A DNA stretch of 52,539 nt, from IMG/VR virus record IMGVR_UViG_3300010048_000015, positions 1 to 52,539 of that record; one strand, written 5' to 3'. Position numbers and translations under genes: made by a program. A model generated the notes under the pieces. The model had not been told where the DNA came from and made no database searches. It saw nothing but the letters and a program-made list of their open reading frames with translations. Shown here in pieces: positions 34 to 52,539 of this stretch; position 1 is the stretch's first letter, and each line of letters opens with the position of its first letter. Origin of the DNA: a virus (Duplodnaviria; Caudoviricetes).

Positions 34-63
34 ATTATATAACAGCCCCCGCTAGGAAGTCAA
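34..63 (-). promoter_or_regulatory. sigma70-type promoter firing leftward off the window edge
   Basis: Minus strand reads TTGACT-18 bp-TATAAT, with A-tracts upstream (~78-98). Confidence 0.8.
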
Positions 64-1949: not shown

Positions 1950-1951
1950 TT

Positions 1952-3069: not shown

Positions 3070-3147
3070 TGTAGTCTCCTTGACTCTCGAGCTGGAACGA
3101 CTTTCGTTCCGGAAGGCACTCATTGAGTGCCAACCGCAGCGGAAGTG

Positions 3148-5210: not shown

Positions 5211-5631
5211 TACTTGAAGACCCAATAGTGTGCCTGCTAAGAACTAACTGGTTATTACATGTACTGGTCGGCTAGCGTGTCGTAGTCGACTCGTGAGGTC
5301 GACTCGCCCGATATGACCTTCTGAACGTACTTGTCGAGCCATGCCTTGAAGGCAGTACCCTCGAAGTAGACCTTCTCGCCATCCATCCTCGAGTCGTAGT
5401 TGGACTCGATGATACCCTTCTTGGCGTAGTTGTACATCATCTGAGGACGAACCTCAGTGAAGTCTCCGTCGACCTTAGCTGCTAGGACCTTGTTCGTGAC
5501 CTTCGCGGCAGCGAACGGAGTAAGGTTAGAGAACGTAGCGCTCATTGTAGTCTCCTTGTGACGTAGAGCTGAACTGATGAAGAGTTGATGAATCGCTAGT
5601 CTCAGCAGGCACACTATTGAGTTTTCAAGTA
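5211..5631. repeat. ~35 bp imperfect inverted repeat bracketing gene 5255..5545
   Basis: 5211..5246 is near reverse complement of 5597..5631; 16 bp perfect core CAATAGTGTGCCTGCT. Confidence 0.85.
5255..5545 (-). CDS. putative HTH DNA-binding protein, paralog of 2752..3069
   Basis: High visible similarity to 2752..3069; 19 bp identical start region. Confidence 0.75.
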   Translation of the reverse strand: MSATFSNLTPFAAAKVTNKVLAAKVDGDFTEVRPQMMYNYAKKGIIESNYDSRMDGEKVYFEGTAFKAWLDKYVQKVISGESTSRVDYDTLADQYM

Positions 5632-5785: not shown

Positions 5786-5788
5786 AGC

Positions 5789-33708: not shown

Positions 33709-33864
33709 GTTTCTCCTTGAACGGTCTCTCTTAGTTCTCTCGCGGTCTATCATTAAGGGCGCCAAAGCTAGATAATCACGTTAGTGCGACGCTATCACGC
33801 ATGGCTCTCATTAAGAGAACACGAGAGAACATCTGTTTCCTTTGATCTTAAGAATGCAGAATTT

Positions 33865-34546: not shown

Positions 34547-34868
34547 CGTTGCTTGCGATCTTCTTCCTAAGCTCGTCGGCTTCCGACTGCAGCTCTTCTA
34601 TCTGCGCTTCCAAATGCGCTAGTCGGGCCTGTGGAGATTTGCGGTCTCCCCGAGTCCGGAGCTCCAAGTTGTCGATGGTAGGGTTCGCACGTTTCTCTCT
34701 GCTGGTGTCAATGAGGTGTACGAATTCGCCCTTCACGAGCTTTCGTCCTAGCTTCTCCTCCATGAGTAGGATGTGAGTAGCTACGAAGCGTCCATTGGCC
34801 TTGGTATGGTGGTAACCGTTCTGGTTGACGAAAGTCGCTCCGTCATCTGCTGCTTGTCCCCTAGGCAT
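34539..34868 (-). CDS. HNH-like protein, degenerate
   Basis: NGY...HILLMEEKLGRKL..GEFVH.ID...NLEL. Confidence 0.75.
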   Translation of the reverse strand: MPRGQAADDGATFVNQNGYHHTKANGRFVATHILLMEEKLGRKLVKGEFVHLIDTSREKRANPTIDNLELRTRGDRKSPQARLAHLEAQIEELQSEADELRKKIASNGG

Positions 34869-35029
34869 GGCTTGCACACCTCCTTACAGAAGCAGTATCC
34901 TTGGAATTTGCGACGCATCTTGTTGTTGGGTAGCATTCGTGCGTTGCGTCTAGCGCGGGCAGCGCCTTCGACGTCGCCGTTGGCTTCACGCAGTCTGGCA
35001 ATATGGAACCAGAGGAAGTACGCGTTCAT
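34781..35029 (-). CDS. hypothetical protein
   Basis: TAATG coupling to polymerase stop; CFCxxxCxxC. Confidence 0.5.
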   Translation of the reverse strand: MNAYFLWFHIARLREANGDVEGAARARRNARMLPNNKMRRKFQGYCFCKEVCKPCLGDKQQMTERLSSTRTVTTIPRPMDAS

Positions 35030-38233: not shown

Positions 38234-38532
38234 TCCTTGCCTTCGAACATTTCCTTGAGAGTAATGAAGCCCTCTCTGTCCGTATAAGGGTTCTGCTGCA
38301 GCATGTGCGATACAGACCGCTGGAGCAGGTAGAGCTTGATGTAGGTGAAGCGTGCGTAGTTAGCCAGGTCGAGAACCTCTTGTATCGCCTCTTCGAGAGT
38401 GTCTACCTGGAAGAACTTCAGCTCTCCATGCAGGTTCCGACCTTCTTCTAGGCGCTCCTGACACCTCTGTACGAAGCTCTCGTCGGCTTCTCGCAGCAGA
38501 GCCTCTAGCGCCTCGCCTATACTTCCGCTCAT
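38230..38532 (-). CDS. putative all-alpha (MazG-like) dNTP pyrophosphohydrolase
   Basis: ERLEEG...HG...LEEAIQEVLDLANY acidic helix; ATGA coupling both sides. Confidence 0.6.
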   Translation of the reverse strand: MSGSIGEALEALLREADESFVQRCQERLEEGRNLHGELKFFQVDTLEEAIQEVLDLANYARFTYIKLYLLQRSVSHMLQQNPYTDREGFITLKEMFEGKE

Positions 38533-39077
38533 TGTCCGATCGCCTTCAGGAACTCGTCCTTGGCAGTGCGCTCGTGGATGCCAAACACGCCACGCATCGT
38601 CGCCGTGTAGGTGGTAGTGCCAGGGGCTTGGACTCCTCTGATTGTCATGCACAGATGCTCACACTCCATTACTACTGCTACGTCTTCGGTCCCGAGTCGT
38701 TTTTCGAGCTGGTCTGCTATGTCTTCAGTCAGTTCCTCCTGCACGCATAGCGCCCTTGCTTGGTTCTGCGCTAGCCTGGCTATCTTCGATAGACCAGCGA
38801 TATGGTCCTGTGGAATGTATCCGATGTCAGCGTGCCCGAGGAATGGAACGACATGATGCTCGCATAGGCTAACGATCGGAATCCTCTTGACGACGACCAT
38901 GTTCCGGATCTTCGTCGGAAACGTTGTGAAGTGGAAGTCTTCTGGTGTCGTCATCTCCTTCAGCATCTTGAGGAATCTTGCTGCTGTACGTTCGGTGTGA
39001 GGGCTTTCTTCGTCCATACCTGCGACGTTTGCGAGTATGTACTGGGCTGCGTGGTTTAGATTGTGAAACTCTAGCAC
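38529..39077 (-). CDS. folE: GTP cyclohydrolase I
   Basis: SLCEHH..PF.G, GLSKIAR, VQEELT, HLCM..RGV. Confidence 0.97.
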   Translation of the reverse strand: MLEFHNLNHAAQYILANVAGMDEESPHTERTAARFLKMLKEMTTPEDFHFTTFPTKIRNMVVVKRIPIVSLCEHHVVPFLGHADIGYIPQDHIAGLSKIARLAQNQARALCVQEELTEDIADQLEKRLGTEDVAVVMECEHLCMTIRGVQAPGTTTYTATMRGVFGIHERTAKDEFLKAIGQ

Positions 39078-39784
39078 TATGTTCCCCTCTTGTTGACGCC
39101 GTAAATGTACTGATGGACTTGGATGTTAAGGCGCCAGGGCACCTTGTACTGCTTGATGAGCTCGACTATATCGGTAGCTCCCCACGTGTCGCTCCAGACC
39201 GGACCGACGAAGACCGAAACACCTGAGTCCTTGACTACGGTATTCCAGACGTCCATAGCGACCTCGAAGTCCTCGGCATCCGCGACTGTGAACTTGACTA
39301 CGCCTCCGTACTTGGTCATCTCTACCAAGTTGCGTGATCGCTCGTTGAGCCAGGTCTTCTCTCCTGAGCCTGGAAGCTTCCAGTCCATGACGAGCTGCGT
39401 GCCCATCAAGAAGACCTCGGCTGGTACTTCGAACGTACCGTTGGTAAAGACCTCCGTTGTCCATGGAAGCTCAGGCCCGTCGAATAGCCGTTGCAGGAGG
39501 CTGATGAGTTCCTTGTGAGGTTGGAGGAAGGGCTCGCCTCCTGTGAAGCAGATGTTCGACGCGCCTGTCTCCTTGTACTTCGCCTCGATGTCCTGCGCGA
39601 GCTCCCACGGCTGACGAGAGTACTGCTCTTCTCGATACAGCTTCGGGTCGATCGCGAACTGCGAGTCGCAAGGCCAGGAGGGGCACTTCAGGTTACACCC
39701 TGCGAAGCGTACGAACTGCGTCAGGATGCCAACTCGAGGGCCTTCTCCTTGCGTCGACACATAGTGCTCGACTAGTCTCATCAC
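39077..39784 (-). CDS. queE: 7-carboxy-7-deazaguanine synthase (radical SAM)
   Basis: STQGEG...FVRFAGCNLKC..WPCD, FTGGEP, TNG. Confidence 0.95.
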   Translation of the reverse strand: MMRLVEHYVSTQGEGPRVGILTQFVRFAGCNLKCPSWPCDSQFAIDPKLYREEQYSRQPWELAQDIEAKYKETGASNICFTGGEPFLQPHKELISLLQRLFDGPELPWTTEVFTNGTFEVPAEVFLMGTQLVMDWKLPGSGEKTWLNERSRNLVEMTKYGGVVKFTVADAEDFEVAMDVWNTVVKDSGVSVFVGPVWSDTWGATDIVELIKQYKVPWRLNIQVHQYIYGVNKRGT

Positions 39785-40167
39785 GTTGCTCCATCATAGG
39801 ACGCCCACGTCTTCGGAGTCTCCGAGACGTATATGATTAGGCCGTAGCTGTCGTGCTTCTCCCTGAGCGTTGCATCTACGCCCTTGTGCACGATGTCCCA
39901 GATGTGTCGAGCGATGTTCTCGGCCGTTGGGTTGAAGTCGACGACGTCATTGATGCATTTGTGATCGAATCGTCCGTCGATTATAGCCTTGAAGCCGTCG
40001 AGTGCTCTGTAGTCGAGAACGAATCCGATCTCGTCGAGATCCATCGTATCGATCTCGATCTCGACTTGGTAGTTGTGTCCGTGCATCTGAGCACACGGAT
40101 GCGTCGGAGGTAGACCTCGAAGGAAGTGTGCTGCGCTGAAGTCGAAGCGCTTCTTGATGCTATACAC
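39781..40167 (-). CDS. queD: 6-carboxytetrahydropterin synthase
   Basis: FSAAH...C..MHGHNY, FDH, NPTAENIA, VSET. Confidence 0.97.
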   Translation of the reverse strand: MYSIKKRFDFSAAHFLRGLPPTHPCAQMHGHNYQVEIEIDTMDLDEIGFVLDYRALDGFKAIIDGRFDHKCINDVVDFNPTAENIARHIWDIVHKGVDATLREKHDSYGLIIYVSETPKTWASYDGAT

Positions 40168-40876
40168 TGGCTACCGCCGTTCTCCAGTACTCGGTGTCCT
40201 CGTAGATGGTCTGGTCGGGAACGTGAGCTTCTGCAAGTGCCTCTAGGCGCTCGACGCATGTGCCACATCGTCCGCAGTGGTGCTTACGGCCGTTGTAGCA
40301 CGACCAGGTGAGATGCACAGGCACATCGAGGCGCTTGGCTTCGAACGCGATCTCGGCCTTAGTCTTGTCGAGGAAGGGGAGTACGAAGCTCCAGTCGTCC
40401 CTGATGACGTCGAGGTTGGCGACACGAATAGTGTCCCTCAGCAAGTTCCAGAACGACGGTCTGCAGTCGGGATAGATAGCTGCGTCGCCGTTGTGAGGTG
40501 CGGCTGCTACGTAGTGGCCGTCCTCGGCAATGCACACTCCGACGGCTATAGCCGTCATGATCATGTTCCTGTTTGGAACGATCGTCAGCTTCATCGTCTC
40601 GTGCGCGTAGTGGCCCTCGGGTACCTTGACCTTCTCGTTGACGAGGCTGGACTTGGAGTCCCTGATCGCGTCGCCGAAGTCGTTGAGTCCGATGAGTGAC
40701 CAAGGTAGGCCGAATCGCTCCGCTGCCATCTCTGCGAACTGAAGTTCCTTGACGTGTCGTTGCCCGTAGTCGAACGATACGACGTGAGGTCGGTAGTTAG
40801 TACTGACAAGGTAGTGTAGCATCGTGACGCTGTCTAGGCCTCCGCTCACGATCGCAACACCCGTAGTCATTTTCAC
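40160..40876 (-). CDS. queC: 7-cyano-7-deazaguanine synthase
   Basis: SGGLDS, YGQRH..E, VPNRN, YPDCR, TWSCY..HCGRCGTC..R. Confidence 0.97.
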   Translation of the reverse strand: MKMTTGVAIVSGGLDSVTMLHYLVSTNYRPHVVSFDYGQRHVKELQFAEMAAERFGLPWSLIGLNDFGDAIRDSKSSLVNEKVKVPEGHYAHETMKLTIVPNRNMIMTAIAVGVCIAEDGHYVAAAPHNGDAAIYPDCRPSFWNLLRDTIRVANLDVIRDDWSFVLPFLDKTKAEIAFEAKRLDVPVHLTWSCYNGRKHHCGRCGTCVERLEALAEAHVPDQTIYEDTEYWRTAVASV

Positions 40877-43038
40877 GTTTCGTCCTTTCCCAGTAGACTG
40901 TTGTACGTTACCGATCTTCCTTCTCCACCTCTAGCTATGAGTCCTCGACCTACCAGCGTCTTCTCGATATCGTCCATCTCTCGAGCCGTCAGGTGATAGG
41001 TCTGCATAAGTCTAGATCGAGCGAAGTTGCCTCGCCGTTGAATAGCGTGCAGTATGAGTTCGATCTTGTGCTCGAGTGGTCCCTTGCCGATGTTAGTGAT
41101 GATGTCTTGTGCATAGCGTCGCCAAACGTCTCCGTACATAGCTGCACGAACAATGTCTTGCTCTTCTACTACAACGTCGCCTTCGAGACACCGTGACGCT
41201 GCTAGCAGTATAGATGCCTTGAGGATCGACGTAGCTAGTCGTACGTACATCGGAACCATCGTCACTCTAAGGTCCTCGCCACTGTCAACAGCTAGCTGTG
41301 TCAAGGTCTGCTCGACTTCATTGTACCGCGACCACGCGCGCTCTGTCATCTTGACATCCACAGGCACTGTGTGAACGCCGACAACTTTGCCTTTGAACGT
41401 GGTTGGTGCAGTGCGTTCGTGTGCTTTGGCAATCTGTTGGAGTTCGGTCAGTATGCGATCCCGTCCAGTGAGATTCTCTTCTTCAGGCGGGCCGAGAGGT
41501 CTAACCTTAGATGGATCTGATTCGGCTGTTATGAATACGAATCGGGGAAGGAAGCCTGACTCAATGTCTTCCGTATCAACAATGCGCTGCATCTTTGTCT
41601 TGATGCCACCTGCGAAGAGTATTACTCGTGGGTCTCGAATGACAATCTCTTCCTTACGCAGGAGGCGCTTCTGGGTTCTGCCGTCGTACATCTTAGTCAG
41701 GAACTCTTTCATTCCTGACATGTAGTCCTTTCTGGACATCTGTTCCATAAAGCCAGTGAACTCGTCTCGTAGAAAGAGACTCACGCGTCCTGGCCTCGTC
41801 GATAGAGCCTGCATGAAGCCCTCTACTGAGCCGTCTGTCGCTAGCAGGAGGTCCGGATCGATTTCCAGGACTATGTCCATCGCTAGGTCCATCGCCGTCG
41901 ACTTTCTCGTCAGCGTCGTATCTGCCAGGATCATAAACCAGAGGTTCGGTTGTATAGACCCATAGCGCGTGAGTAGTCTGACAGAACCAGCAAGGAGCGT
42001 CGACAGTGCTGTGAAAGCTCCAGCTTCGTGATACTGGATCGCTGCGTCTCCTACTTGCTTCGCCCAATCTACGTACCTTTCTATGAATGACGGCTCTCTG
42101 GCTAGAGCTTCTCTTTCCGCTCGTGTGACGAGCGCCAGCTCAGTACCAGGCGGCAGAGTGGCCATCCGCGACTGTTCGGCATGCCGAGACTGAGCTCTAC
42201 AAATGTCCTTCCAAAGGCGTATAGGCTGACCGGTGAACTTGTTACATGCCGCGTCTCTACATACTTGAAATACTTCCGGTAGCGAAAGTCCAGCTTCCAA
42301 ACAGTACATTTCCAACCTGAAGAGAGCCGAGCTACGGTCGGTCTCAGGCTCCCTGTGGAAGAGCGTGAATGCGGCCCCGTTGATCCTGTGCCTGTTGCGT
42401 TCAAGGATCTTCTCTCCATCCTCTGGAACGAACTCCGGAAACGGTATGTCTAGGTATTCGTATCCGGGAGTTTGATCATACAGGTCTCGGAAGTCAGAGA
42501 GTGGGTGAGTGTCATCGTTCCAATCCAAGACTCTGACTTTAGGCGCCTCAGCTCCCTGTCCATATTTGTAGTTTCGAGTGCCAGGAATCCTGAGTAGCTG
42601 CGTGAGATCCCATCCGCTTCTATCACTGCCTTGATCGGAATGGTGATAAGCAATGCGTCGGGCGGCATCCTCAGCATCCTCAGCATCGACTGGTTGTGAT
42701 AGCGTCCAGAGTGCTTGGTACCTTCCAGGACTCGTCTCGTAGCAGATAGAAGGTTTGATACGAAGGTATTTGGGGTGACACTCGTCGAGGTCGGCCCAGA
42801 TGCATCCGACTTGGTCGACGTTGACTTTGACACGACGCCTCTCCTTCAGTAGCTGAGGACAGAAGTACACATTCTCTACTAGTGCTCTTGAACGGATGAC
42901 TTCTTCGGCTCGCTGTGCCTCGTCAGGGTACGAGAAGAATTGTTCTGCGAACTTGCCCTCAGGCCTACGGGTAGCGATGCAGATAAAACCTGTCGTATCT
43001 CCATATGCAGTTTCAAAGAAGTCGACTAGTCCTGCCAC
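40873..43038 (-). CDS. RepB-like primase fused to DUF3987-type helicase
   Basis: WADLD, ETSPGRYQALW, LLRIPGT.NYK; RKST, RDEF, SGFLPRF. Confidence 0.85.
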   Translation of the reverse strand: MAGLVDFFETAYGDTTGFICIATRRPEGKFAEQFFSYPDEAQRAEEVIRSRALVENVYFCPQLLKERRRVKVNVDQVGCIWADLDECHPKYLRIKPSICYETSPGRYQALWTLSQPVDAEDAEDAARRIAYHHSDQGSDRSGWDLTQLLRIPGTRNYKYGQGAEAPKVRVLDWNDDTHPLSDFRDLYDQTPGYEYLDIPFPEFVPEDGEKILERNRHRINGAAFTLFHREPETDRSSALFRLEMYCLEAGLSLPEVFQVCRDAACNKFTGQPIRLWKDICRAQSRHAEQSRMATLPPGTELALVTRAEREALAREPSFIERYVDWAKQVGDAAIQYHEAGAFTALSTLLAGSVRLLTRYGSIQPNLWFMILADTTLTRKSTAMDLAMDIVLEIDPDLLLATDGSVEGFMQALSTRPGRVSLFLRDEFTGFMEQMSRKDYMSGMKEFLTKMYDGRTQKRLLRKEEIVIRDPRVILFAGGIKTKMQRIVDTEDIESGFLPRFVFITAESDPSKVRPLGPPEEENLTGRDRILTELQQIAKAHERTAPTTFKGKVVGVHTVPVDVKMTERAWSRYNEVEQTLTQLAVDSGEDLRVTMVPMYVRLATSILKASILLAASRCLEGDVVVEEQDIVRAAMYGDVWRRYAQDIITNIGKGPLEHKIELILHAIQRRGNFARSRLMQTYHLTAREMDDIEKTLVGRGLIARGGEGRSVTYNSLLGKDET

Positions 43039-43050
43039 GCTAACTCCAAA

Positions 43051-43137
43051 GGAAGGCGAAGCTCCGGCCCGTCCAGTCGCTCTCTGCTGGTAAACGGAGT
43101 ATGCCGGCCCTTTCGCTGCGACTCGACTTCGCCTTCC
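43051..43137 (-). other. structured intergenic RNA element before primase
   Basis: 11 bp stem GGAAGGCGAAG/CTTCGCCTTCC enclosing 65 nt. Confidence 0.55.
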
Positions 43138-43146
43138 GGCTAGTAG

Positions 43147-43659
43147 TTAAGGGAGAATGCTCGCGTTGCCGCGTACAGCACCGGCCTTGGCACCTGGAGC
43201 AGGAGAGCCTGACTTCATGCCCTCCTGGTAGGGCGCGAAGCCACGCACTTCGATCCAGGACATCGGGTCGTCCTCGGGATTGGCCTTCTTAGCGTTCTTG
43301 TTCACGCCTCGGCGAGCCATGACGTGCTGTCCGATGTACGCCTCGGGAGCGTCAGGGATTTCGAGGCCGCCCTTGGCTGTCGCGTCGTTATACATGTCGA
43401 GCGCCTTGAGCAGGTTGATGATCGTGTAGAGCGCGCCTTCCCAGCAGCACGCTGTCCACTTGATCTGCCTGTCGGCGTAGGGACCGTCCTGAACGTCCGC
43501 GGTGAACTTGAGGAGCGGCTTGTCGGGGTTCGCCTCTGACTGCGACTCGGCGAACTCGACGTCGGTGATGACGACGTGGTAGCTACCTGAGGGCAGATAG
43601 CCGCTGCCGTCACCAGACTTGGATTCTCGTTCTGATACAGTATTCACTTTGATAGACAT
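43147..43659 (-). CDS. ssDNA-binding protein (DUF669-like)
   Basis: LPSG.YHV.ITDVE...DGPY; follows Sak4-like gene. Confidence 0.75.
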   Translation of the reverse strand: MSIKVNTVSERESKSGDGSGYLPSGSYHVVITDVEFAESQSEANPDKPLLKFTADVQDGPYADRQIKWTACCWEGALYTIINLLKALDMYNDATAKGGLEIPDAPEAYIGQHVMARRGVNKNAKKANPEDDPMSWIEVRGFAPYQEGMKSGSPAPGAKAGAVRGNASILP

Positions 43660-43684
43660 GTGACTTGTACCTTGTACCTTTCGA

Positions 43685-44635
43685 CTACTTGTGGATGAGT
43701 TCGAAGATGTCGTGCATGTTCGGCTGAACTACGACGAGAGGCAGGTTGCCCGACCTGTCTTTGGTCACGTATCCCTCTAGCGCGCCCGTCAGTAGCATCC
43801 GACTAACCTCGGTAGGCTTGGTCTCGTCTCCTGATGCTCCCTCCTTCGTGTATAGGTACATTACCTGATCGAACAGGCCCGCTACCTGATTCGCCAGCTT
43901 ACCGGGTAGGTCGGGACGCTTCCACATAACGCCCTTGTTGTCCCGCTCGGTAGTCTCGTGGCAGAGAAAGATGAAGTTGATAGGCAGGTCTCGGAACTGC
44001 CTTAGCGTCTTCCTCATGCGGTTGGTTGACGCGCCCCAGTCGTGGAGACCTGGCACGTCAGGATCTCGGTCTGGATGGGCAGCGAGTGTGCGTCCCATGA
44101 CCCAGTCCATGTTGATCTTCTGCAGCTCGGTTCCGGTGTCGATCGTGACCGTTCGGAAGTCGGGTAGGTCGGCCGAGTTGTAACACTGACGATCGAGCTC
44201 GTCGTAGATGGCTTCGAACTGTTCCCAGGTGACCGCACCTTGCTGCTGCGGATCGGGAATGATCTGAATGTTCTTGTTGAGCTGGAGCTTTCTCAGAGTC
44301 GACGTTCCAGCCTCGGCGTTGATGTACAGCATCGGCCCGAGATGCTTAGAGCTAGCTCCCTGACCTGCGAGGTGCGTCTTGCCTGAACCTGGCAGGCCGT
44401 AGATCATGGTGTTGACGATATCGAGCTCGGACTTTGTCGGAGGAGCAATCGGAATACCTGCGAAGAACCTAGGGCTCGCCAGTGCAGCTATGACCTGCTC
44501 CTTCTCCTCCTCCACTGCGGCTGCTCGCTCGTCGTCAGGGAGTATGTCTTCCGACGTCTCTTCCTTCTCGAACTCGAAGTCGTCTGGACCTGCTGTGTCT
44601 ACTGCTTCTTGCGCCCTGTCTGCTGCGTCTCCCAT
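43685..44635 (-). CDS. AAA_24 / Sak4-like ATPase
   Basis: YGLPGSGKT, TVTIDT, FLCHE, KDRSG.LP. Confidence 0.85.
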   Translation of the reverse strand: MGDAADRAQEAVDTAGPDDFEFEKEETSEDILPDDERAAAVEEEKEQVIAALASPRFFAGIPIAPPTKSELDIVNTMIYGLPGSGKTHLAGQGASSKHLGPMLYINAEAGTSTLRKLQLNKNIQIIPDPQQQGAVTWEQFEAIYDELDRQCYNSADLPDFRTVTIDTGTELQKINMDWVMGRTLAAHPDRDPDVPGLHDWGASTNRMRKTLRQFRDLPINFIFLCHETTERDNKGVMWKRPDLPGKLANQVAGLFDQVMYLYTKEGASGDETKPTEVSRMLLTGALEGYVTKDRSGNLPLVVVQPNMHDIFELIHK

Positions 44636-45858
44636 TACCCTATGCCTTTGTGATCGGTTGTTGCTTCGCGTAGTGCGTAGTACCTCGGTTTGACTTCGTA
44701 CAGTGTGTCAAGTGCGTATTGGTAGTCGCCACCCTGATCCATATCCATACAAGGTTCTCTGTAGGCACAGAAGCCGCAGGAGAAGCGTCCTGGCGACGGG
44801 TATAGTGCAAGGTTCGGATTTAGCATCTCGCAAGCCTGCTCGTAGAGGTGGCGTTCGAAGCTTTCGAGCTGTATCGGGCGCTTGTAGACCCTGTGGTCCT
44901 GAATGAACTTTGGACCCTCAGTCTCAAGCCAAGAGATGTACTCGTTGTAAAGACCTTCGTCGTACGCAGCTCTGTCACGCTGCATCACTGTCGCACGGAA
45001 AGTTGCTGCATCGGTGTCCTGGTTCTGACTGATGCTGAACGATCTTCCGAGTCTAACGACCTTCAGCTCGGTTGCAGGTTGCGGAAAGCCCTTCTTTAGT
45101 TCTATGTACCTGAAGCCTCGGATGTTAAGGCCTAGTGCTTTGCGTAGTGCCCAAACGTAGCCTGCGACTTGGTCGTCGAGCTCGAGGATGACATCTGCGT
45201 CCTCACCCATCAGCCTGATAGTTGTCTTCCAATCAACAATCCAGAAGTCGCCTCTGTTATCCCTTACAATCACATCAATGCGGCCTTCGTAGACTACGGG
45301 CAAGCCTATCCAGTCAGCTTCGTACCTCAAGTAGTGTCTGCGCTCAGGGTCTTCAGGCATCGTGATATCTCGACTAGCACAGACCTTAGCCCAGCACTTG
45401 TCGCACTTGCACATGAGCGGCGTACCGTCAGGATGCAAGATCGGTACTTGGAACTTGACCTCGACGTAGATCGGTACGAACTCAGCCACTGGGAGGTGAT
45501 TCATCACGTACCAGTGAATCATCCCCCTCCCCAGCTTCACCTGCTCGTCGTAGTCGCGCTCCTCATCGTCGCCCAGGCCCCTGTCCTGCAGAGAATAGAA
45601 CGCCTTCTTCTGCCTCTGTGCCTCGTCGAAGAAGGCAGCCTCTGCGAACTGAGCGATGAGTTGTTTCGGAGCGCCCCACGTCTCGGGATTGTACATCGCT
45701 TCCATACCCTTATGGAACGCGATTCCGAACTCGAACATCGACAGCGTCTTAGCAGGCTGCAGGTCGAGATCGAAGGACCAGTGATGACGCCGACGGCAGC
45801 CTCTGAACGATCTAAGCTCGGTCGTATGAATTTCATGAACCAGCTGATCAGCTTGCAC
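44635..45858 (-). CDS. Cas4-like PD-(D/E)xK exonuclease
   Basis: GCRRR, G.AFH, GRID...IVDWKT, C..C.YR..C. Confidence 0.85.
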   Translation of the reverse strand: MQADQLVHEIHTTELRSFRGCRRRHHWSFDLDLQPAKTLSMFEFGIAFHKGMEAMYNPETWGAPKQLIAQFAEAAFFDEAQRQKKAFYSLQDRGLGDDEERDYDEQVKLGRGMIHWYVMNHLPVAEFVPIYVEVKFQVPILHPDGTPLMCKCDKCWAKVCASRDITMPEDPERRHYLRYEADWIGLPVVYEGRIDVIVRDNRGDFWIVDWKTTIRLMGEDADVILELDDQVAGYVWALRKALGLNIRGFRYIELKKGFPQPATELKVVRLGRSFSISQNQDTDAATFRATVMQRDRAAYDEGLYNEYISWLETEGPKFIQDHRVYKRPIQLESFERHLYEQACEMLNPNLALYPSPGRFSCGFCAYREPCMDMDQGGDYQYALDTLYEVKPRYYALREATTDHKGIG

Positions 45859-45885
45859 TGGAACTCCTTTAGGCTGCTTAAGACT

Positions 45886-45915
45886 ATTATATCATGGATC
45901 ATCTATGTAGCACAA
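45886..45915 (-). promoter_or_regulatory. promoter for replication/modification operon
   Basis: TTGTGC-18 bp-TATAAT with TGn extension; TTGTAATACA at 45921..45930. Confidence 0.7.
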
Positions 45916-45924
45916 CCCCTTGTA

Positions 45925-46446
45925 TTACAATGACGGTATGACGTTCTCAACCTGATCAGGGTCGGTCTCGCTACGGATCTCGTCTCGCTCTTCCTGCGTA
46001 CGAGCCTCAGCACGCTCCTCCGCGACGTCGTCGGCGGTCGGTGGGTAGAGCTGAGCGTCCAGCTCGGGCAGAAGATTCTTAATGCCGACTCCTGCGAGTA
46101 GTTGGTGAACGAAGCGTCTCACGACCCATCGGTTGGGCTTGTTGCAGCGCTTGTGTACGATCCAGCCGAACCGTTGTGTCCTAATCCAGTCTTCGGTCTG
46201 TGCCGAGAACTTGCCTCGAGAGGAACCGCGGCCCTTGCCTACGATCTTGCACTCGCAGTAAGTCGTCGGTCTGGCGACCAGCGCTTCGACAGTAGCGCAT
46301 GCGGCTGCGATGGCACCGATAGCGACAGTCTCCTGCTGTAGGACTTCCGTCTGGTTGTCGTCTGCTTCTTGCGCTGCCCATAGACTTGCGATGAAATGCT
46401 CGGCTGCATCATTGTCCCCGAAGCCCAGTAGCACTATTCGGGCCAT
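45925..46446 (-). CDS. hypothetical protein, possible Zn site
   Basis: CEC...HKRC; RBS. Confidence 0.7.
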   Translation of the reverse strand: MARIVLLGFGDNDAAEHFIASLWAAQEADDNQTEVLQQETVAIGAIAAACATVEALVARPTTYCECKIVGKGRGSSRGKFSAQTEDWIRTQRFGWIVHKRCNKPNRWVVRRFVHQLLAGVGIKNLLPELDAQLYPPTADDVAEERAEARTQEERDEIRSETDPDQVENVIPSL

Positions 46447-46630
46447 TGACTTCCTCTCCGTCTAGAAAGAATCGGTGGTTGTGTCCTCTGCATACGTCGC
46501 GTGCTGAGTGGTAGTGAACGACGACGCCCTCGACATCTGGGTTGGATATGCGATCCTCCTTGGACTTGTACTTCGCGTCTTCGACCATCTTGAACTCGTC
46601 GATGGCAGGCGTGACGAACATATCACTCAT
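46409..46630 (-). CDS. hypothetical protein
   Basis: GGAGGAG RBS. Confidence 0.6.
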   Translation of the reverse strand: MSDMFVTPAIDEFKMVEDAKYKSKEDRISNPDVEGVVVHYHSARDVCRGHNHRFFLDGEEVNGPNSATGLRGQ

Positions 46631-46964
46631 GACTACTCCTCCCGTCGCTAATGATGCTCTGCTGGTAGAGTTGCTTACGTAGGATCTCGCAGCCGCCTCG
46701 AATTGCTTCGTCGACGCCATCCTGCGAGATCCAGGGATCGCTCCAGGCTGAGAGGTTACCAACATAGTAGTCGGGCCCGATCAGCTTGCCCTTGGCCTGA
46801 TAGTAGACACCGAAGCCTGGCCTGGGACCCTGAGGCGTTGGTATCGAAGGTACGAAGACGAGCTGCCAGCTGATGATTCGTAGCCCAAGACTCTGACTCT
46901 CCAGAGCGGAAAGGACCATCGGCTTGAGTCGCTCTTCGATTTCGGTAAGGTCTGAATCAAGCAT
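46623..46964 (-). CDS. hypothetical protein
   Basis: GGAGG RBS; overlaps neighbours. Confidence 0.65.
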   Translation of the reverse strand: MLDSDLTEIEERLKPMVLSALESQSLGLRIISWQLVFVPSIPTPQGPRPGFGVYYQAKGKLIGPDYYVGNLSAWSDPWISQDGVDEAIRGGCEILRKQLYQQSIISDGRSSHE

Positions 46965-48465
46965 TGAAGTACGCCTCCGGATTGGTTCTGTCGCCCAGAA
47001 TGTATTCTAGGGCTTTCCACTTGTTCGCTATGCGCGTCTTTCTTCCGAGGTCGACAGTGTCGCGTGCCATGATATCGATGACCTGAACGGGATGGATTTG
47101 ACCGATGCGGTGAGCTCGGTCCTCAGCTTGCCTATTCTTAGTCGGGTTCCAATGGCGGTCGAAAAATACGACTGTCGAAGATCGGTGAAGAGTGATACTC
47201 TCCCCTCCAGCTGCGATCGTTCCGCAGAGGACCTGAATGTGACCAGCCTGGAAGTTTGTCTCATAGAGGTCCCGGTCGTGTTGAGATACACTACCAGTAT
47301 ACGGCCGAGCGACAATTCCTCGAGCCTCAAGACGCCGTACAGCAAGGTGACTCATGCTCCTCGATTGACTGAATACGACGATCGACTCGTCAGGATTGCC
47401 ATCGATAATCTCTTCCAGGTCGTCAAGCTTGACGCTTGGATCGACTAGAGTGACCTTGGATCGAAGGTGGCGCCAAGGCTCAACGCCTGGTCCTCTGAAG
47501 ACCGGGTCCTGCTCATAGACTTCTTCGAAGTCCACAGACGCTAGGGCGAATTGTTGGAGACGGACTAGCTGTGCGACGACTGCGCCTGCAGCGAGGGGCT
47601 TGTCCCTGTTCTCTCCGACCCATGCGATCATCTCTCGACGCATCTCGTCGTAGGCCTTACGTTGTCCTGGAGGAAGGGTAACGAAGCGCTCGGTGTACGT
47701 CTTCTTTGGCAGATCGATTCCGACTTCGGACTTCTTTCTGCGCAAGTAACAAGGGTAGATCGTCGATAGCATTTCGGCTGCGCCTACGGGATTCACTCCA
47801 ACGACCTTCTTGAAGCTACGTCCCATCGCTGACTGCTGCTCGACTACGCAAGTCTCCTTAACAAATCTCCAGTACGACCTGAAGTCTTTGGGCCAGAGCC
47901 AGTTGAGGACGCTCCAGAAGTCCTGGGGCTTGTCGTCTGCAGGAGTGCCGCTGATGCCCGTCTTGTACTTAGTCTTGAGAGCCTTCAGTGCTCGTGTCTG
48001 TTGCGCTGTGCGATTCTTGATCCTGTGGACTTCGTCTGCGATGATGTGGAACCACTCGATCTCCTTGAGCACCGGCATAAGACGGAGAGCTTCGTAGTGG
48101 ATGATGACGTAGCGAGGCCAGCCACCTTCCTTGATGGCCTTTCTCAACGCGTAGTCGAGGAGCATACGCTTCTTTCTGTCGATCACCCAGATGACAGTGT
48201 TCGGACCAAGAAGCTCGACGATCGTCTTCACCCATGTGTTCCAGTGCGAGCCTGCTGGTGCGACGATGAGCGTCGGGTGACCTCCGTAGATGTGGGGATT
48301 GCGCAGTTCGATGTCACGTGCGACGCCTTCGTACGTCTTGCCAAGGCCCATGTCATCGGCGATGAGTGCTGCCTCTGCGACTTCGCCTTCGAGTGGGACT
48401 AGCTTCGCTACGCCTTCTTGCTGGAAGTGGTACAACAGGTTCCAGTACTTGCCTCTAACTTGCAT
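46957..48465 (-). CDS. SNF2-family helicase
   Basis: ADDMGLGKT, DEVH, SGTP, QAEDRAHRIGQ. Confidence 0.95.
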   Translation of the reverse strand: MQVRGKYWNLLYHFQQEGVAKLVPLEGEVAEAALIADDMGLGKTYEGVARDIELRNPHIYGGHPTLIVAPAGSHWNTWVKTIVELLGPNTVIWVIDRKKRMLLDYALRKAIKEGGWPRYVIIHYEALRLMPVLKEIEWFHIIADEVHRIKNRTAQQTRALKALKTKYKTGISGTPADDKPQDFWSVLNWLWPKDFRSYWRFVKETCVVEQQSAMGRSFKKVVGVNPVGAAEMLSTIYPCYLRRKKSEVGIDLPKKTYTERFVTLPPGQRKAYDEMRREMIAWVGENRDKPLAAGAVVAQLVRLQQFALASVDFEEVYEQDPVFRGPGVEPWRHLRSKVTLVDPSVKLDDLEEIIDGNPDESIVVFSQSRSMSHLAVRRLEARGIVARPYTGSVSQHDRDLYETNFQAGHIQVLCGTIAAGGESITLHRSSTVVFFDRHWNPTKNRQAEDRAHRIGQIHPVQVIDIMARDTVDLGRKTRIANKWKALEYILGDRTNPEAYFNA

Positions 48466-48637
48466 CAGTCTTCTTTCCTATTGCTGCTAGACCTTCACCG
48501 TGTACAGGACAATACATACCGAACATCTTGCGCCCATCTTCCTCGAAACCTGCCTGCCCGAAGCCTTCGCAGAACTGGTGCTTGACCTCGAACGTGCGTA
48601 GTACGATTTGGAAGTGGAGCTGTCTTAGCCACTTCAT
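48455..48637 (-). CDS. hypothetical protein
   Basis: AAGGGAG RBS. Confidence 0.55.
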   Translation of the reverse strand: MKWLRQLHFQIVLRTFEVKHQFCEGFGQAGFEEDGRKMFGMYCPVHGEGLAAIGKKTDAS

Positions 48638-48697
48638 CTTACTCCCTTATCGCGCCTATAAGCATCGCTGCTACTACGATGATGATCAGCATCGTAG

Positions 48698-48958
48698 TCA
48701 CTCTCTGCTCCTTTCGCCCAGAACGTCGCCGCTAACTGGACATAGCCATAGAAACACGATGAACTCTCTACGGCGCTCGTAGTCAAGCCCAAGTCTTCCC
48801 TTGCCGTTGTATGGGTGTCGTATGTGACATCTTCTGCACCACAAGCCTGCAGTTACGTCTTGCAGTCTAGGAGGTCGCCAAGAGACGCCGTCGTGCGATC
48901 TCTTCCTGTGCCACTTAGTTCGGTATCTTCCAATGAAGTCCCTTGTCTCGTCTTTCAT
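48698..48958 (-). CDS. hypothetical protein, possible Zn ribbon
   Basis: CRRC...CPVS. Confidence 0.5.
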   Translation of the reverse strand: MKDETRDFIGRYRTKWHRKRSHDGVSWRPPRLQDVTAGLWCRRCHIRHPYNGKGRLGLDYERRREFIVFLWLCPVSGDVLGERSRE

Positions 48959-48991
48959 CCGTAGCCTTAGCTGGTTTATCTTACTCCCTTA

Positions 48992-49043
48992 CCTGGCACG
49001 CTGGGTCACCGTGAATGGCCGGTCTCCCTCCCAGCGTGCCAGG
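48992..49043. terminator. hairpin, terminator or processing site
   Basis: 14 bp perfect stem CCTGGCACGCTGGG, 24 nt loop. Confidence 0.6.
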
Positions 49044-49053
49044 CTTTTAGGCA

Positions 49054-49140
49054 CTAGAGATGCTGAATAGCGTGTGACGTGTCGTCTGGACTTGAAGCCT
49101 CGATGTCTGATACCGACCAGACAGCTTCAGTATCCGGCAT
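49054..49140 (-). CDS. 28 aa acidic peptide (not in ORF track)
   Basis: AGGAGGTGA RBS then MPDTEAVWSVSDIEASSPDDTSHAIQHL. Confidence 0.45.
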   Translation of the reverse strand: MPDTEAVWSVSDIEASSPDDTSHAIQHL

Positions 49141-49166
49141 TGTTCTCACCTCCTAGTCTCCAAGGC

Positions 49167-49208
49167 CCTGTACAGGCCAGGCGAGCCTGAGCGGGACGCC
49201 TGTACAGG
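49167..49208. repeat. hairpin built from palindromic CCTGTACAGG units
   Basis: 11 bp stem; each arm contains a 10 bp palindrome. Confidence 0.6.
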
Positions 49209-49218
49209 ACGTTCGAGG

Positions 49219-49416
49219 CTAGGCCAGGTCGAACTCTCCGTCCTTGACTCCTGCTAGAAATGCTTTCCATTCCTGGCCGGTGAAGCCGAGGATTGGTCCG
49301 TCCTGATCCTTCGAGTCGCGAACTTCGACCCGATCACTGCGAGGCCTGCGTACTTCGACGCACGAGCCGTTCGGGTTGCTGTGTCGCGACTTACGCCACT
49401 TGGCGTCCATGGTCAT
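49219..49416 (-). CDS. DUF397 (BldB-like) protein
   Basis: WRKSRHS...CVEV...VRDSKD..GP.L.F...EW.AF..GVK.GEFD. Confidence 0.92.
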   Translation of the reverse strand: MTMDAKWRKSRHSNPNGSCVEVRRPRSDRVEVRDSKDQDGPILGFTGQEWKAFLAGVKDGEFDLA

Positions 49417-49423
49417 CTCTCTG

Positions 49424-50272
49424 TTAGGCGTGCACCCATGTGTCGGGAGCGACGCGAGGGTTGTTCGCGTGCACCCAAGTGTCGAGGTAGTTGGTCAGGT
49501 GAGGCTGGACCGAAGCCCACCCGGAGGCCTGGACGGCGAAGTCGGACATCAGCGGAATCGGAAGTCCGGTGTTGGCGTCCAGGTCATATGCTGCCTGTAG
49601 GGGAGTCAGCCTCGGCGGCAGCGTGCACTGGAAGTGGCGCGTCGGGAACGATACGAGGCCGTTCAGGTCGTAGAGGCCAGCCGCGATTGCGTTGCGGTCG
49701 ATGCCAGTACCTCCACCCCTGATCCACCACGGCACGTCGGTCTGAGTGACGCGGATAGAGCAGGTGAGTAGATCGATGCTGACGTCGTTCGCCACGATGC
49801 CCCTGTGATGCACGAGCACCGAGTCACCGAACACGTCGGAGAAGCGGTCGAGGACGGGGCTCACGGTGATGTCACGCCCCAAGTCGAACCGAATCGGGCC
49901 GGTACCCAGGACCTGGTCTTGCTGACGGAACACGCCAGGCGCGACCAGGAAGCCGTGATCCGAAACGTCGAACTCCTGCTGCTTGATGTTGCGGCAGAAC
50001 CGGAAGTCGGTGTTCGGATCCAGTGGCTGCGGAACGGGTTCGAGCACGACCTGACACTTCGGCGTCGGTGGAGGAGTGCTCGGGCACGGGTCGTAGCCGA
50101 ACGCTGCTGTCGGAGCGTAGGTGATTGGTGGTGGTGCTGTCGTGCAGTCGCTCGTCGGAGTCGGATCCGGCTGCCCACCAGCGGTACTGGCGTGCGCTGC
50201 GGACTGGCTGAGGCCGAACGCGAGAAGTCCCGCGGCCGTTACCCCCACGACGGTCCTCGTGATGATGGACAT
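49424..50272 (-). CDS. secreted protein
   Basis: Signal peptide ending AHA-S, Pro/Thr linker, several Cys. Confidence 0.75.
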   Translation of the reverse strand: MSIITRTVVGVTAAGLLAFGLSQSAAHASTAGGQPDPTPTSDCTTAPPPITYAPTAAFGYDPCPSTPPPTPKCQVVLEPVPQPLDPNTDFRFCRNIKQQEFDVSDHGFLVAPGVFRQQDQVLGTGPIRFDLGRDITVSPVLDRFSDVFGDSVLVHHRGIVANDVSIDLLTCSIRVTQTDVPWWIRGGGTGIDRNAIAAGLYDLNGLVSFPTRHFQCTLPPRLTPLQAAYDLDANTGLPIPLMSDFAVQASGWASVQPHLTNYLDTWVHANNPRVAPDTWVHA

Positions 50273-50387
50273 ATGCTCCCTTTCGGGCCGGGAGACCTAC
50301 CCGTTGTAGGCCTCTCGAAACCCGACTCGGTCCCGGAGCATCCCCTTCCTACTACACCGAATCGGGATTCCAGAAGCCTACGTTTGC

Positions 50388-50720
50388 TCATGGCAGTAGT
50401 CCTTGTCTTCTTGCTTCTTCTACTTCTTGATTGCGAGCCTTACCTTCATCTGTCTGAAGGTAAGCTTCATGAGCGGCTTGCTGAGCTGCTTCGTGTGCAC
50501 GTCTGTGCTCGTTGGCAATGGCATCAGACGCGTCGTAGCTGAGGTTGATCATTCCGTCTTCGATCTCCAGCTTGCCTTGCCAAACGCAGTAGCCGTCCTC
50601 GTCGTAGTAGCCGATGTGCTTGTCAAGACTCGCTGGATCCTCCATCTCCATCAGGTGTAGGAGATTCAGAAGGTCCCTCGCTGTTGGAAACAAGCTTGCC
50701 GACTGAACGTAGGTAGTCAT
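50388..50720 (-). CDS. hypothetical protein
   Basis: GGAGGA RBS. Confidence 0.65.
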   Translation of the reverse strand: MTTYVQSASLFPTARDLLNLLHLMEMEDPASLDKHIGYYDEDGYCVWQGKLEIEDGMINLSYDASDAIANEHRRAHEAAQQAAHEAYLQTDEGKARNQEVEEARRQGLLP

Positions 50721-50970
50721 CGGCTTCCTCCCTTTCAATAACCTTTCGTCCGCAATCGCACGTGCGTACCTTGATGTACTGTCGACGGATGTAGTAGTAG
50801 ATGAGTTGCGGTGTGATACCTCGTAGCTTGCCGTAGTTGACTGGTGTGATGTACTTAGCCGACTCGTCATCAAGGTCATCAAGCATCATTCGCCTGATGA
50901 GCTCGTCACTATTCGTAAACGTGCTTGAGTCGCCTGAGCTCATTTGGGCAATAACTTCGTCAATACCCAT
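50623..50970 (-). CDS. HTH (Xis-like) DNA-binding protein
   Basis: ITPVNYGKLRGITPQLIYYYIRR...GRKVIEREEADDY. Confidence 0.7.
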   Translation of the reverse strand: MGIDEVIAQMSSGDSSTFTNSDELIRRMMLDDLDDESAKYITPVNYGKLRGITPQLIYYYIRRQYIKVRTCDCGRKVIEREEADDYLRSVGKLVSNSEGPSESPTPDGDGGSSES

Positions 50971-50983
50971 GATTGTTCCTAGA

Positions 50984-51328
50984 TTAGTCGCCCAGTGCGC
51001 GTCTTGCTTCACGCTCCGTGAGGTTCGGATGAGTTGACATGTAGTCAATGAGTCGCAGCTCGTCGCGTGCGGCTTGCATAACCATAGTCGACTCACGTGG
51101 TCTCTCGAACGCCTTCGGACCCCTTCGTCCTGGCTGGGGAATCGAGCCATCAGGATTCGTTTGTACAGCCCAACGTTCACCTTCGTCCGAACAACGGCTG
51201 TTATCGCAGACGAAGATGTGCACCTTGACTCCGCGAAGGGCACCTCGCGGACGCTGAGCAGAGACTTCCTTGCCCGGTACTTGACAGCTAGGGCAGCGTG
51301 CGGCCTCTTCGAAGCTGGTGTCGGTCAA
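50984..51328 (-). CDS. zinc-ribbon protein
   Basis: CPSC...CDNSRC. Confidence 0.7.
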   Translation of the reverse strand: MTDTSFEEAARCPSCQVPGKEVSAQRPRGALRGVKVHIFVCDNSRCSDEGERWAVQTNPDGSIPQPGRRGPKAFERPRESTMVMQAARDELRLIDYMSTHPNLTEREARRALGD

Positions 51329-51741
51329 GATGCCTCTAGCAGTCGACGCATCTGGTCTTCGAGGTTAGTGAGGCGCGTATTCAGTGCGGTCACTTGACCT
51401 TCGAGTTGGCCAAGCTTGGTCGCGCTCCGAAGGCGTCGCTGATCAGCGATCTCGAAGTCCTCCCAAACAGGGTCCTTGATGAGCTCCCAGCGCGAAGGCG
51501 AATTGCCACCTCCTCTGGAGAGCTGTTTCACACAGCCCATCTTCTTGAGGCGCTGCATGACACTCGTGTAGTACGGAGTAGCCAGCTGCAAGTCGCTGAA
51601 GAGGCGAGTCAGGAAGCCCTCGTACACAAGAGCATGTACTCCCTCGATCTGAGTCGCGTGCGACTCTCTCTTCATCCGTGCGAACACTGACAAGCAGTGC
51701 TCAAACAGTTTCGGAGGTGCTTCCTCCATCTGCGCTGTCAC
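51325..51741 (-). CDS. winged-helix protein with coiled coil
   Basis: YYTSVMQRLKKMGCVKQL.RG...W; C-terminal heptads. Confidence 0.7.
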   Translation of the reverse strand: MTAQMEEAPPKLFEHCLSVFARMKRESHATQIEGVHALVYEGFLTRLFSDLQLATPYYTSVMQRLKKMGCVKQLSRGGGNSPSRWELIKDPVWEDFEIADQRRLRSATKLGQLEGQVTALNTRLTNLEDQMRRLLEAS

Positions 51742-51931
51742 TTGTCACCTTCTCTCGAATGCTACGGAGCACTCTGATCGTGTCTCCGTAATCACTTGTG
51801 CAGGAGAGAAGTGATTCCCAGCTGGTGAATCCTTCTCCTCCTGACTCTTTGTGCATCGCGTCCTCGAATCCTTCGATCTCGATGTCGAGGACGTCTCGAA
51901 GCACTACACGTTCTTCGTTGGTCAAGACCAT
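51701..51931 (-). CDS. hypothetical protein
   Basis: AAGGGAG RBS. Confidence 0.6.
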   Translation of the reverse strand: MVLTNEERVVLRDVLDIEIEGFEDAMHKESGGEGFTSWESLLSCTSDYGDTIRVLRSIREKVTSDSADGGSTSETV

Positions 51932-51957
51932 GTAATACTCCCTTGCGTGACTTAGGA

Positions 51958-51998
51958 GGGGCTCCTGCCAAAGGAGACTACAGGAAGGCAGGAGCCCC
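51958..51998 (-). other. 3'-UTR hairpin with anti-RBS loop
   Basis: 12 bp stem; minus-strand loop TTCCTGTAGTCTCCTTT. Confidence 0.7.
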
Positions 51999-52026
51999 CT
52001 TGAGTGACCCAAGACGTCCCTTCAGG

Positions 52027-52527
52027 TCACTCGGCTTCGGAGAAGAAGCTGTCCTCCTCGCCGACTTCGAGCTGCACGTCTTCGCCGCTCTCCTCGGTGC
52101 TAGTCGATGCCTGTCCATCGCGAGGCTTCCCGGACGTACCCGCAGGCTTGCCCGACGTGCCGGTGCGCTCCTTGCGTCGCTGCCACCACTCGACGCCCGC
52201 TTCCAGGTCGAGACCCGGACGCGTCCACGCTCGGGTCTCACCTTCGTTGATCTGCGGGTCGTCGTACTCGATCCCGTCCTCGTCGTAGTGCTTCACGGGG
52301 AACGGATCGGTCTTGCCTGGGTTCTTCACGAAGGTGTAGAACTGCTGCGGCTTGATGTCCTTCGGCGCCAGGCCTCGCTTGACCAGCTCGTTCTTGAGCT
52401 GGATCGGCGTGACCTTGCCTGCCGGAAGACTGAAACGCATTCCGACTCCGCCGTTGGTCTCGCCCGTGTCGGCCGCCGCTCCGGTGTCTTCCGGAGTCTC
52501 GGTCTCGGTCGCGGTGTTCCTGGGCAT
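52027..52527 (-). CDS. putative HTH DNA-binding protein with acidic tails
   Basis: VTPIQLKNELVKRG..DIKPQQFYTFVK; GGAGGT RBS. Confidence 0.75.
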   Translation of the reverse strand: MPRNTATETETPEDTGAAADTGETNGGVGMRFSLPAGKVTPIQLKNELVKRGLAPKDIKPQQFYTFVKNPGKTDPFPVKHYDEDGIEYDDPQINEGETRAWTRPGLDLEAGVEWWQRRKERTGTSGKPAGTSGKPRDGQASTSTEESGEDVQLEVGEEDSFFSEAE

Positions 52528-52539
52528 TGTACCTCCCTC

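Follow-up and report, generated by a model that had tools for sequence, protein, structure and literature searches.

A hairpin loop complementary to the ribosome-binding sites of two HTH genes in an actinophage-like virus genome, with counterparts of different sequence in related phages

To our knowledge, only a few model phages control genes of their own by trans-acting antisense RNA, c4 in P1/P7 being an example. The c4 RNA of these phages carries loop complements that bind around the ant ribosome-binding site (RBS) of a distantly made phage mRNA and block its translation, as set out in those sections of a 2025 review on which we draw (PMC12197685), and it is the same trans-acting loop-to-RBS logic that has been proposed for the hairpin analysed here. 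This hairpin lies in a viral record of 52,539 bp, the whole of which was analysed and which we call the window. However, c4 is a processed RNA that controls an antirepressor in temperate Gram-negative phage, whereas the window loop belongs to a 3′-UTR/leader hairpin of an actinophage-like virus known from sequence alone. Its candidate targets, at 2.7 and 5.2 kb upstream, are small genes of presumed winged-helix type, and the hairpin does not resemble c4 in sequence (no Rfam match). In the same sections of the review, from which the word 'mycobacteriophage' is absent, P22 sar and lambda OOP are described as phage cis-antisense RNAs that repress phage regulators by pairing (PMC12197685). These are transcribed opposite their targets and are fully complementary to them, whereas in the window one strand carries both the putative regulator and its targets, at a distance of kilobases.

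Bacterial base-pairing sRNAs derived from 3′-UTRs, of the CpxQ, SroC and DapZ type, work with Hfq/ProQ and end in a U-tailed terminator. They resemble the proposed regulator in that it would have its 3′ hairpin in common with the upstream gene's mRNA and would act in trans by a short seed; however, the window hairpin has no U-tract (7/7 sequences) and its seed would lie in its own loop. A second comparison is with sRNAs that pair with Shine-Dalgarno (SD) sequences through C-rich loops, namely the 6C RNA of Actinobacteria and RNAIII/RsaE of staphylococci. Here too a pyrimidine-rich hairpin loop would pair with G-rich SD regions, but no Rfam family was found in the window (0 matches at gathering score) or in 7 related loci, where the sole match with E <=1 was a chance miRNA (E 0.31), and the window loop is U/C-mixed with one specific 12-nt target. 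Finally, the window hairpin is like an intrinsic terminator in being GC-rich and placed after a stop codon, and differs from it by its 17-nt loop and missing U-tract.

The window genome and the hairpin

The window is an IMG/VR record classed as linear and about 82% complete. Its terminase is best matched by that of Arthrobacter phage Wollypog (37% identity), then by those of Gordonia and Mycobacterium phages, and we treat it as an uncultured actinophage-like soil virus; because the terminase shares just this 37% with Wollypog, the host can be assigned only loosely to the actinobacteria. Minus-strand genes occupy 1-6400 and 33200-52539. Positions 1-116 and 52118-52539 (the last ~420 bases) are contiguous in a relative (G002, 23494-24027), with an overlap of ~4-5 nt, so that the record is probably a permuted or circularly assembled genome without true ends at this point. 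Once the ends are joined, the order along the minus strand becomes HTH paralogue 2, HTH paralogue 1, P0001, two hairpins, the P0004-family gene and the replication genes (Table 1). No tRNA was called by ARAGORN in the window or in 12 loci.

Table 1. Coordinates of the features discussed, in window positions
Feature	Position	Strand	Description
HTH paralogue 1, 105 aa	2752..3069	-	N-terminal ~65 residues modelled as MerR/Xis/BldC-like winged helix
Target 1, AAGGAGACUACA	3070..3081	-	directly 5′ of the AUG of HTH paralogue 1
HTH paralogue 2, 96 aa	5255..5545	-	58% identical to paralogue 1
Target 2, AAGGAGACUACA	5546..5557	-	directly 5′ of the AUG of HTH paralogue 2
Promoter TTGACT-18-TATAAT, sigma-70-like	34..63	-	11/12 positions; just upstream of P0001 once the window ends are joined
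P0001 gene, 166 aa	52027..52527	-	conserved central domain of unknown function; structural neighbours only weak HTH_17/KilAC-like
Hairpin 1 of tandem pair	52002..52032	-	arms 52002-52009 and 52025-52032; overlaps P0001 stop codon
Hairpin 2	51958..51998	-	12-bp perfect GC-rich stem and one closing G.U pair; 17-nt loop, 51970-51986
Loop 12-mer, UGUAGUCUCCUU	51971..51982	-	inside the 17-nt loop of hairpin 2
P0004-family gene, 76 aa	51701..51944	-	ATG 51931-51929 (gene 51931-51701); SD AAGGGAG 51944-51938; first gene past the hairpin

The two 12-nt arms of hairpin 2 (51958-51969 and 51987-51998) are 100% complementary. When the minus-strand RNA is folded the stem forms and the loop is left fully open, the opening of the loop 12-mer costing 0.21 kcal/mol; the 126-nt context has an MFE of -52.7 kcal/mol (z -2.64), and 0/200 shuffles fold as well. 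The hairpin starts 28 nt past the stop codon of P0001.

Carriers of a P0004-type gene were found in six related viral contigs and one metagenome contig, giving 7 distinct sequences, and in 7/7 of these a GC-rich hairpin of 13-16 bp ends 23-25 nt before the P0004-type ATG. Stem pairs were counted by script in a register-anchored manner, the MAFFT alignment A3 having the 3′ arms out of register. Over 14 pairs and 7 sequences, 97/98 cells are canonical and 10/14 pairs show at least two canonical types; furthermore, five G.U stem pairs would be A.C mismatches if read on the opposite strand. Canonical covarying pairs and the strand bias of G.U pairs both indicate that the hairpin is a selected structure of the sense (minus-strand) RNA. 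Stems are conserved from one orthologous leader hairpin to the next, while loops are free in sequence and in length (12-44 nt).

Judged by this orthology, the hairpin belongs with the 5′ leader of the gene that follows, that of the P0004 family, and it adjoins the P0001 stop codon in the window because the long spacer of the relatives is missing there. A U-tract or T-run after the stem is absent from 7/7 orthologous sequences, so that a defined 3′ end of a small RNA is not predicted. A terminator scan made no call at the hairpin, whose stem is like that of an intrinsic terminator but whose 17-nt loop exceeds the 3-8 nt expected there and whose U-tract is missing. As just ~25 nt separate it from the next ATG, with no room for a promoter, transcription has to run through the hairpin in at least some cases. 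Two further strong hairpins with large loops stand on the minus strand of the replication arm, at 48992-49043 (14-bp stem, 24-nt loop) and 49167-49208 (11-bp stem, 20-nt loop); each is intergenic and just upstream of an SD, and one of the loops holds a sense SD-like AGGGAGA.

The complementarity to which the earlier note had drawn attention is exact: the 17-nt loop carries UGUAGUCUCCUU, the full complement of the AAGGAGACUACA that directly precedes the AUG of both HTH genes. A genome-wide count of the 12-mer bears this out, AAGGAGACTACA occurring exactly three times, at 3070-3081 (-), 5546-5557 (-) and 51971-51982 (+), which places its complement in the minus-strand loop. The loop-target duplex is a perfect 12 bp of -18 to -19.6 kcal/mol, with target opening costs of 6.0 and 3.8 kcal/mol. 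Ranked by duplex energy, the two HTH genes come 1-2 of 70 called genes, and a third gene is close (-18.9 vs -19.6 kcal/mol).

How surprising is a match of this length? An antisense match of at least 12 nt anywhere in the window is found for the loops of 4/19 perfect hairpins (stem >=9) and for 2.9% of 5000 random 17-mers. With 203 candidate RBS sites as targets, 0.36% of 100000 shuffled loops reach a match of 12 nt, and 2.2% do so if CTCCTT is kept fixed. A null made of random minus-strand 17-mers was dropped because it re-finds plus-strand RBS sites as perfect complements. Since the match was picked from a very large scan, window statistics alone are insufficient; taken alone, the window match goes beyond chance only marginally and is weak evidence.

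Loops and HTH ribosome-binding sites in related genomes

No DNA match to 51000-52539 was found in the phage GenBank collection, and a tblastn search of the same collection with P0003 found none either; P0002 as a single query recovered no relatives from the viral contigs, nor did a search of genome contigs with alignment A1. A search with the P0001-family alignment added eight loci. Two loci from a 17-mer search of viral contigs (L010 and L011) are unrelated and low-GC, and they were taken as chance matches and dropped. Gene starts and hairpins were called by crude in-house scripts.

The HTH RBS was fixed as the target before the relatives were looked at, and a single test was applied to 10 genomes. 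Hairpins with a stem >=9 (G.U allowed) and a loop of 5-30 were collected within the spacer that runs from the P0001 stop to the P0004 ATG, and K was defined as the longest perfect loop complement to the HTH RBS (-18..+5), the controls being the other called sense-strand genes and 2000 loop shuffles (Table 2). Loops were defined by direct stem enumeration, a definition by whole-spacer MFE having been abandoned because it lost real hairpins. L047, a contig without an HTH homologue, and L026, which is too short, stand outside the K test.

Table 2. Longest perfect loop complement to the HTH RBS (K) in 10 genomes, with the control genes that reach K
Genome	K	Controls	Shuffle p
W (window)	12	0/56	0.0005
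G004	10	3/43, all three with the same 10-mer	0.001
L042	9	1/35	0.012
L039	8	0/32	0.0065
L040	8	1/33	0.0035
G003	7	2/70	0.014
G002	4	40/44	0.97
L044	4	25/29	0.48
G001	0	all	1.0
G006	0	all	1.0

K is at least 8 in 5/10 genomes (8-12 nt, covering the SD), with three sequence versions and two hairpin types, and in these five genomes the HTH RBS comes first or nearly first as a target when set beside 32-56 control genes. Fisher's combination over 9 genomes (L040 being dropped as close kin of L039) gives 0.019 with control targets and 4e-6 with shuffled loops. The duplex energies of L039, L040 and L042 are -12.5, -12.5 and -12.4 kcal/mol, with shuffle p of 0.024, 0.0045 and 0.047, respectively. Another statistic, the minimum duplex energy over all loops, was rejected as uninformative (Fisher 0.17), being dominated by spurious long 'loops'. 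All hairpin loops were also searched against all RBS candidates in six genomes, which made 170 loop-by-strand tests and brought up, in G004, a hairpin other than the orthologous leader one.

The reciprocal search, from the HTH RBS to its longest perfect sense-strand complement, ends in a unique site within the hairpin loop for three genomes, namely the window with 12 nt, G004 with 10 nt and L040 with 9 nt. For L039 and L042 the loop ties with one other 9-nt site, and in G001, G002, G003, G006 and L044 the complement lies elsewhere, is scattered or is absent.

The window sequence AAGGAGACUACA is replaced by ACAGAGGAGA and UACAGAGGA in G004/L039/L040, and by GAAAAGGGA in L042. In G004, the hairpin so found, located 42-75 nt past the P0001-type stop, holds, in its 16-nt loop, the perfect complement of ACAGAGGAGA. 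The 5′ end of this loop also pairs just past the HTH AUG (-21.3 kcal/mol, shuffle p 0.0015), and the HTH gene ranks first among 42 targets once a spurious ORF, antisense to the hairpin itself, is set aside. Furthermore, ACAGAGGAGA stands at the SD position before four early genes of G004, the HTH gene included (L038 3653, 4081, 5772 and 9017). This 10-mer resembles in kind the start-associated sequences of Cluster K mycobacteriophages.

The window, G004, L039 and L040 have a common layout, in which the stop codon is followed by a stable hairpin 1, then by 2-4 nt and by a hairpin 2 whose loop is the anti-RBS one. G004 and L039/L040 have unlike hairpin 2 stems, with a sense-strand U.G pair in L039, but agree in the loop core UCCUCUGU and the RBS core ACAGAGGA. 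In L042, where UCCCUUUUC of the loop matches GAAAAGGGA of the RBS, the hairpin with the anti-RBS loop follows the conserved CACTGGTGTCCC block, and from this place we read it as a leader-type hairpin, the type of the window hairpin. The occurrence of anti-RBS loops in two non-orthologous hairpins weakens the simple argument of a conserved element.

Does the loop, then, follow the RBS from one genome to the next? The earlier note had made its reading depend on this, and the answer is divided, with the balance tilting towards that reading. The match holds in G004, L039, L040 and L042 (8-10 nt); it fails in G001, G002, G006 and L044 (K 0-4), and also in the more distant G007 and G009, which have another gene order and were tested separately (K <=6). 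The anti-RBS loop is therefore not constant across the group. The hairpin of G001 has the identical 12-bp stem, but its 17-nt loop differs at 8/17 positions and shows no HTH RBS match (-4.5 kcal/mol; 801/1000 shuffles as good). For the orthologous leader loops of G002, G003, G004 and G006, nothing beyond shuffles was seen against their own HTH RBS, apart from a weak signal in G004 (z -2.25, 25/1000). As the earlier note had cautioned, part of each short match (L039, L040 and L042, 8-9 nt) is generic anti-SD sequence; the matched sequences reach 4-6 nt beyond the generic SD core.

Candidate functions of the loop

In the reading we favour, the loop would be a trans-acting anti-RBS RNA of the P1/P7 c4 type, which is the nearest case known. 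The RNA that bears the hairpin would be the 3′ end of the P0001 transcript, made from the strong promoter of that gene, or else a processed fragment. Its unpaired 17-nt loop, an extended anti-Shine-Dalgarno, would pair with 12 nt over the SD and spacer of both HTH mRNAs, and this pairing would block 30S binding and turn off the translation of two early winged-helix proteins. When a pre-specified target recurs in exposed loops with different sequences, RNA-RNA pairing that blocks the HTH RBS is the most economical explanation. What the sequences show is the structure with its strand and conservation, the complementarity, and the recurrence of the latter with other sequences in related phages; we infer the existence of a discrete or abundant RNA with the loop, its pairing in vivo and the repression of translation. 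Our probability for this reading is about 0.5, because half of the relatives have no match, the shorter matches are partly generic anti-SD, the gene and hairpin calls are crude and RNA accumulation is itself inferred, the region being present in one DNA run and in no RNA run. Of the trans-acting antisense mechanism put forward in the earlier note, the part that stands is the loop/RBS match, which recurs with other sequences; against it, the nearest orthologous hairpin, that of G001, does not pair with its HTH RBS.

A wider proposal covers a group of uncultured actinophage-like soil viruses, and to it we would give slightly less than even odds. Stable hairpins in the RNA that joins an early gene with a promoter of its own to the replication module would carry loops that evolve as interchangeable anti-RBS seeds. 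The loop of each lineage would match the RBS of that lineage's early winged-helix regulator, and in G004 also those of three further early genes, so as to allow an RNA-only early shut-off from an mRNA 3′ end. Should the pairing be real, it would be a compact RNA-only way of switching off early regulators, in which the seed is re-written together with its target between lineages and the regulatory loop sits in a 3′-UTR hairpin that is not a terminator.

Our first reading had been that of a chance match with a loop that is not conserved; it was overturned by the loop matches of the relatives, and coincidence stays as a rival. The hairpin may be a structural RNA element only, placed at the early/replication boundary as a processing site, a 5′/3′ stability determinant or a factor-dependent attenuator, with an unconstrained pyrimidine-rich loop whose RBS matches are coincidental and follow from its anti-SD-like composition. 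Stems conserved with compensatory changes around loops of 12-44 nt are what such an element would show, and so are the unrelated loop of G001 despite its identical stem, the several relatives without a match, and the other large-loop hairpins before genes (48992-49043 and 49167-49208). Coincidence, for its part, is favoured by the frequency of loop antisense matches of at least 12 nt in the window (4/19), by the 2.2% of CTCCTT-fixed shuffles that reach 12 nt and by the scan of very many windows from which the match came. However, coincidence fits poorly with a pre-named HTH RBS that gives K >=8 in 5/10 genomes and ranks top or near-top against controls, with a reciprocal genome-wide search that ends in the loop for the window, G004 and L040, with combined p of 0.019 and 4e-6, and with matches that include 4-6 nt outside the SD core. 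We hold a purely structural role to be rather unlikely, though it keeps a sizeable share of the probability. Should the anti-RBS match turn out not to be real, it would be a useful warning that anti-SD-like loops give striking RBS matches by composition alone.

The loop could also act in cis, by pairing with the SD/start of the P0004-family gene 25-40 nt downstream in an H-type pseudoknot that tunes its translation, the HTH match then being a by-product of RBS resemblance. Indeed, the distance between hairpin and ATG is fixed in 7/7 sequences, and the window loop can pair with the downstream CAAGGGAGUAUUACAU (-13.6 kcal/mol; 28/1000 shuffles as good), but this pairing is imperfect, with a bulge and wobbles, vs the perfect HTH match. 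Over the 7 sequences the shuffle p are 0.028, 0.635, 0.069, 0.845, 0.075, 0.583 and 0.041, and nothing is seen in 3/7. Cis action, moreover, leaves unexplained why G004, L039 and L040 have anti-RBS loops at 350-500 nt upstream of the P0004 SD, and we find it improbable. Least probable is a 12-bp DNA operator for one of the winged-helix proteins, which would be bound at each of the two HTH genes and, in inverted orientation, ahead of the replication module. There are three exact copies in 52.5 kb, the proteins resemble MerR/Xis/BldC-type DNA binders and the motif changes between lineages as if co-evolving with the protein, but the gene copies fall exactly at the SD position (0-9 nt before the ATG in the window and in 4/4 motif-bearing early genes of G004) and the inverted copy is in a single-stranded hairpin loop in 5/5 positive genomes, for which dsDNA binding gives no reason.

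The two HTH genes, P0001 and the spacer of the relatives

The proposed anti-RBS pairing concerns two proteins without any above-threshold Pfam or PHROG match. HTH_17 is matched by 6/10 members of their family, with a best E of 0.0039 and all below the gathering cutoff. The structural model (pLDDT 82) has BldC, GlnR, gpNu1 and Pukovnik Xis as its best Foldseek rows, at TM(target) 0.7-0.77 and E 0.4-1.6, and for one homologue the source gives the name 'terminase Nu1 subunit'. To regard the paralogues as small MerR/Xis-like winged helix proteins is, on this modelling, reasonable but not proven.

The earlier note had also seen in antisense control an explanation for the identical RBS regions of the two paralogues. 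The 18 nt AAGGAGACTACAATGAGC (RBS and ATGAGC) are identical in both genes of the window and occur in no relative, the relatives having ...ATGTC. The RBSs of the two paralogues differ within G002 and within L042, and in L042 just one of them matches the loop. A short gene conversion would account for the identical RBSs equally as well as selection by RNA does. The 18-nt identity (3052-3081 and 5528-5557, minus strand) stands within genes that are otherwise ~60% identical, which is suggestive of a short gene-conversion tract.

The earlier note's view of P0001 as a distant member of the family of the HTH paralogues finds weak support: BLASTP aligns them with 13/35 identities (E 3e-4), hhalign gives a probability of 22% (E 9e-4, 29 columns), and the atlas structure neighbours of P0001, HTH_17/KilAC, have TM <0.5. 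Its strong own promoter makes P0001 look like a separate, highly expressed early unit. This promoter, within 1-120 of the minus strand, is preceded by an A-rich tract and points into P0001 across the window ends.

Another promoter-like motif, ~TTGAMAAYTNAATAG, recurs upstream of HTH genes in L006, L008, L039, L040, L044 and the window (~5610-5625, minus strand), and again in the P0001-P0004 spacer of G001-G004, G006, L026, L039 and L040; the window lacks its strict form TACAACTRAATAG.

In most relatives, 300-600 nt of noncoding sequence separate the P0001-type stop from the leader hairpin. This stretch, which in L020, L021, L022, L025, L026, L039, L040 and L042 was traced from that stop to the P0004-type ATG, contains the conserved blocks GGGACAACGCTGCTGAGTG ... 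AACCAGGCACTGGTGTCCC and shows long-range pairing. The window does not have it, no Rfam family matches it, and it could be an undescribed structured RNA. In the spacer past the P0001-type gene of distant relatives, tRNA-like strings with a T-arm GGTTCGAATCC/GGTTCGACTCC and acceptor-like ends are seen in L043 (~10540-10625), L044 (~7360-7390) and L048 (~10580-10690), in none of which ARAGORN called a tRNA. In G001, an extra ORF with a signal-peptide-like N-terminus lies between the P0001-type gene and the hairpin (sense 36690-37500; L002 ~3625-4440), and it is flanked by duplicated copies of the motif ACAACTAAATAG.
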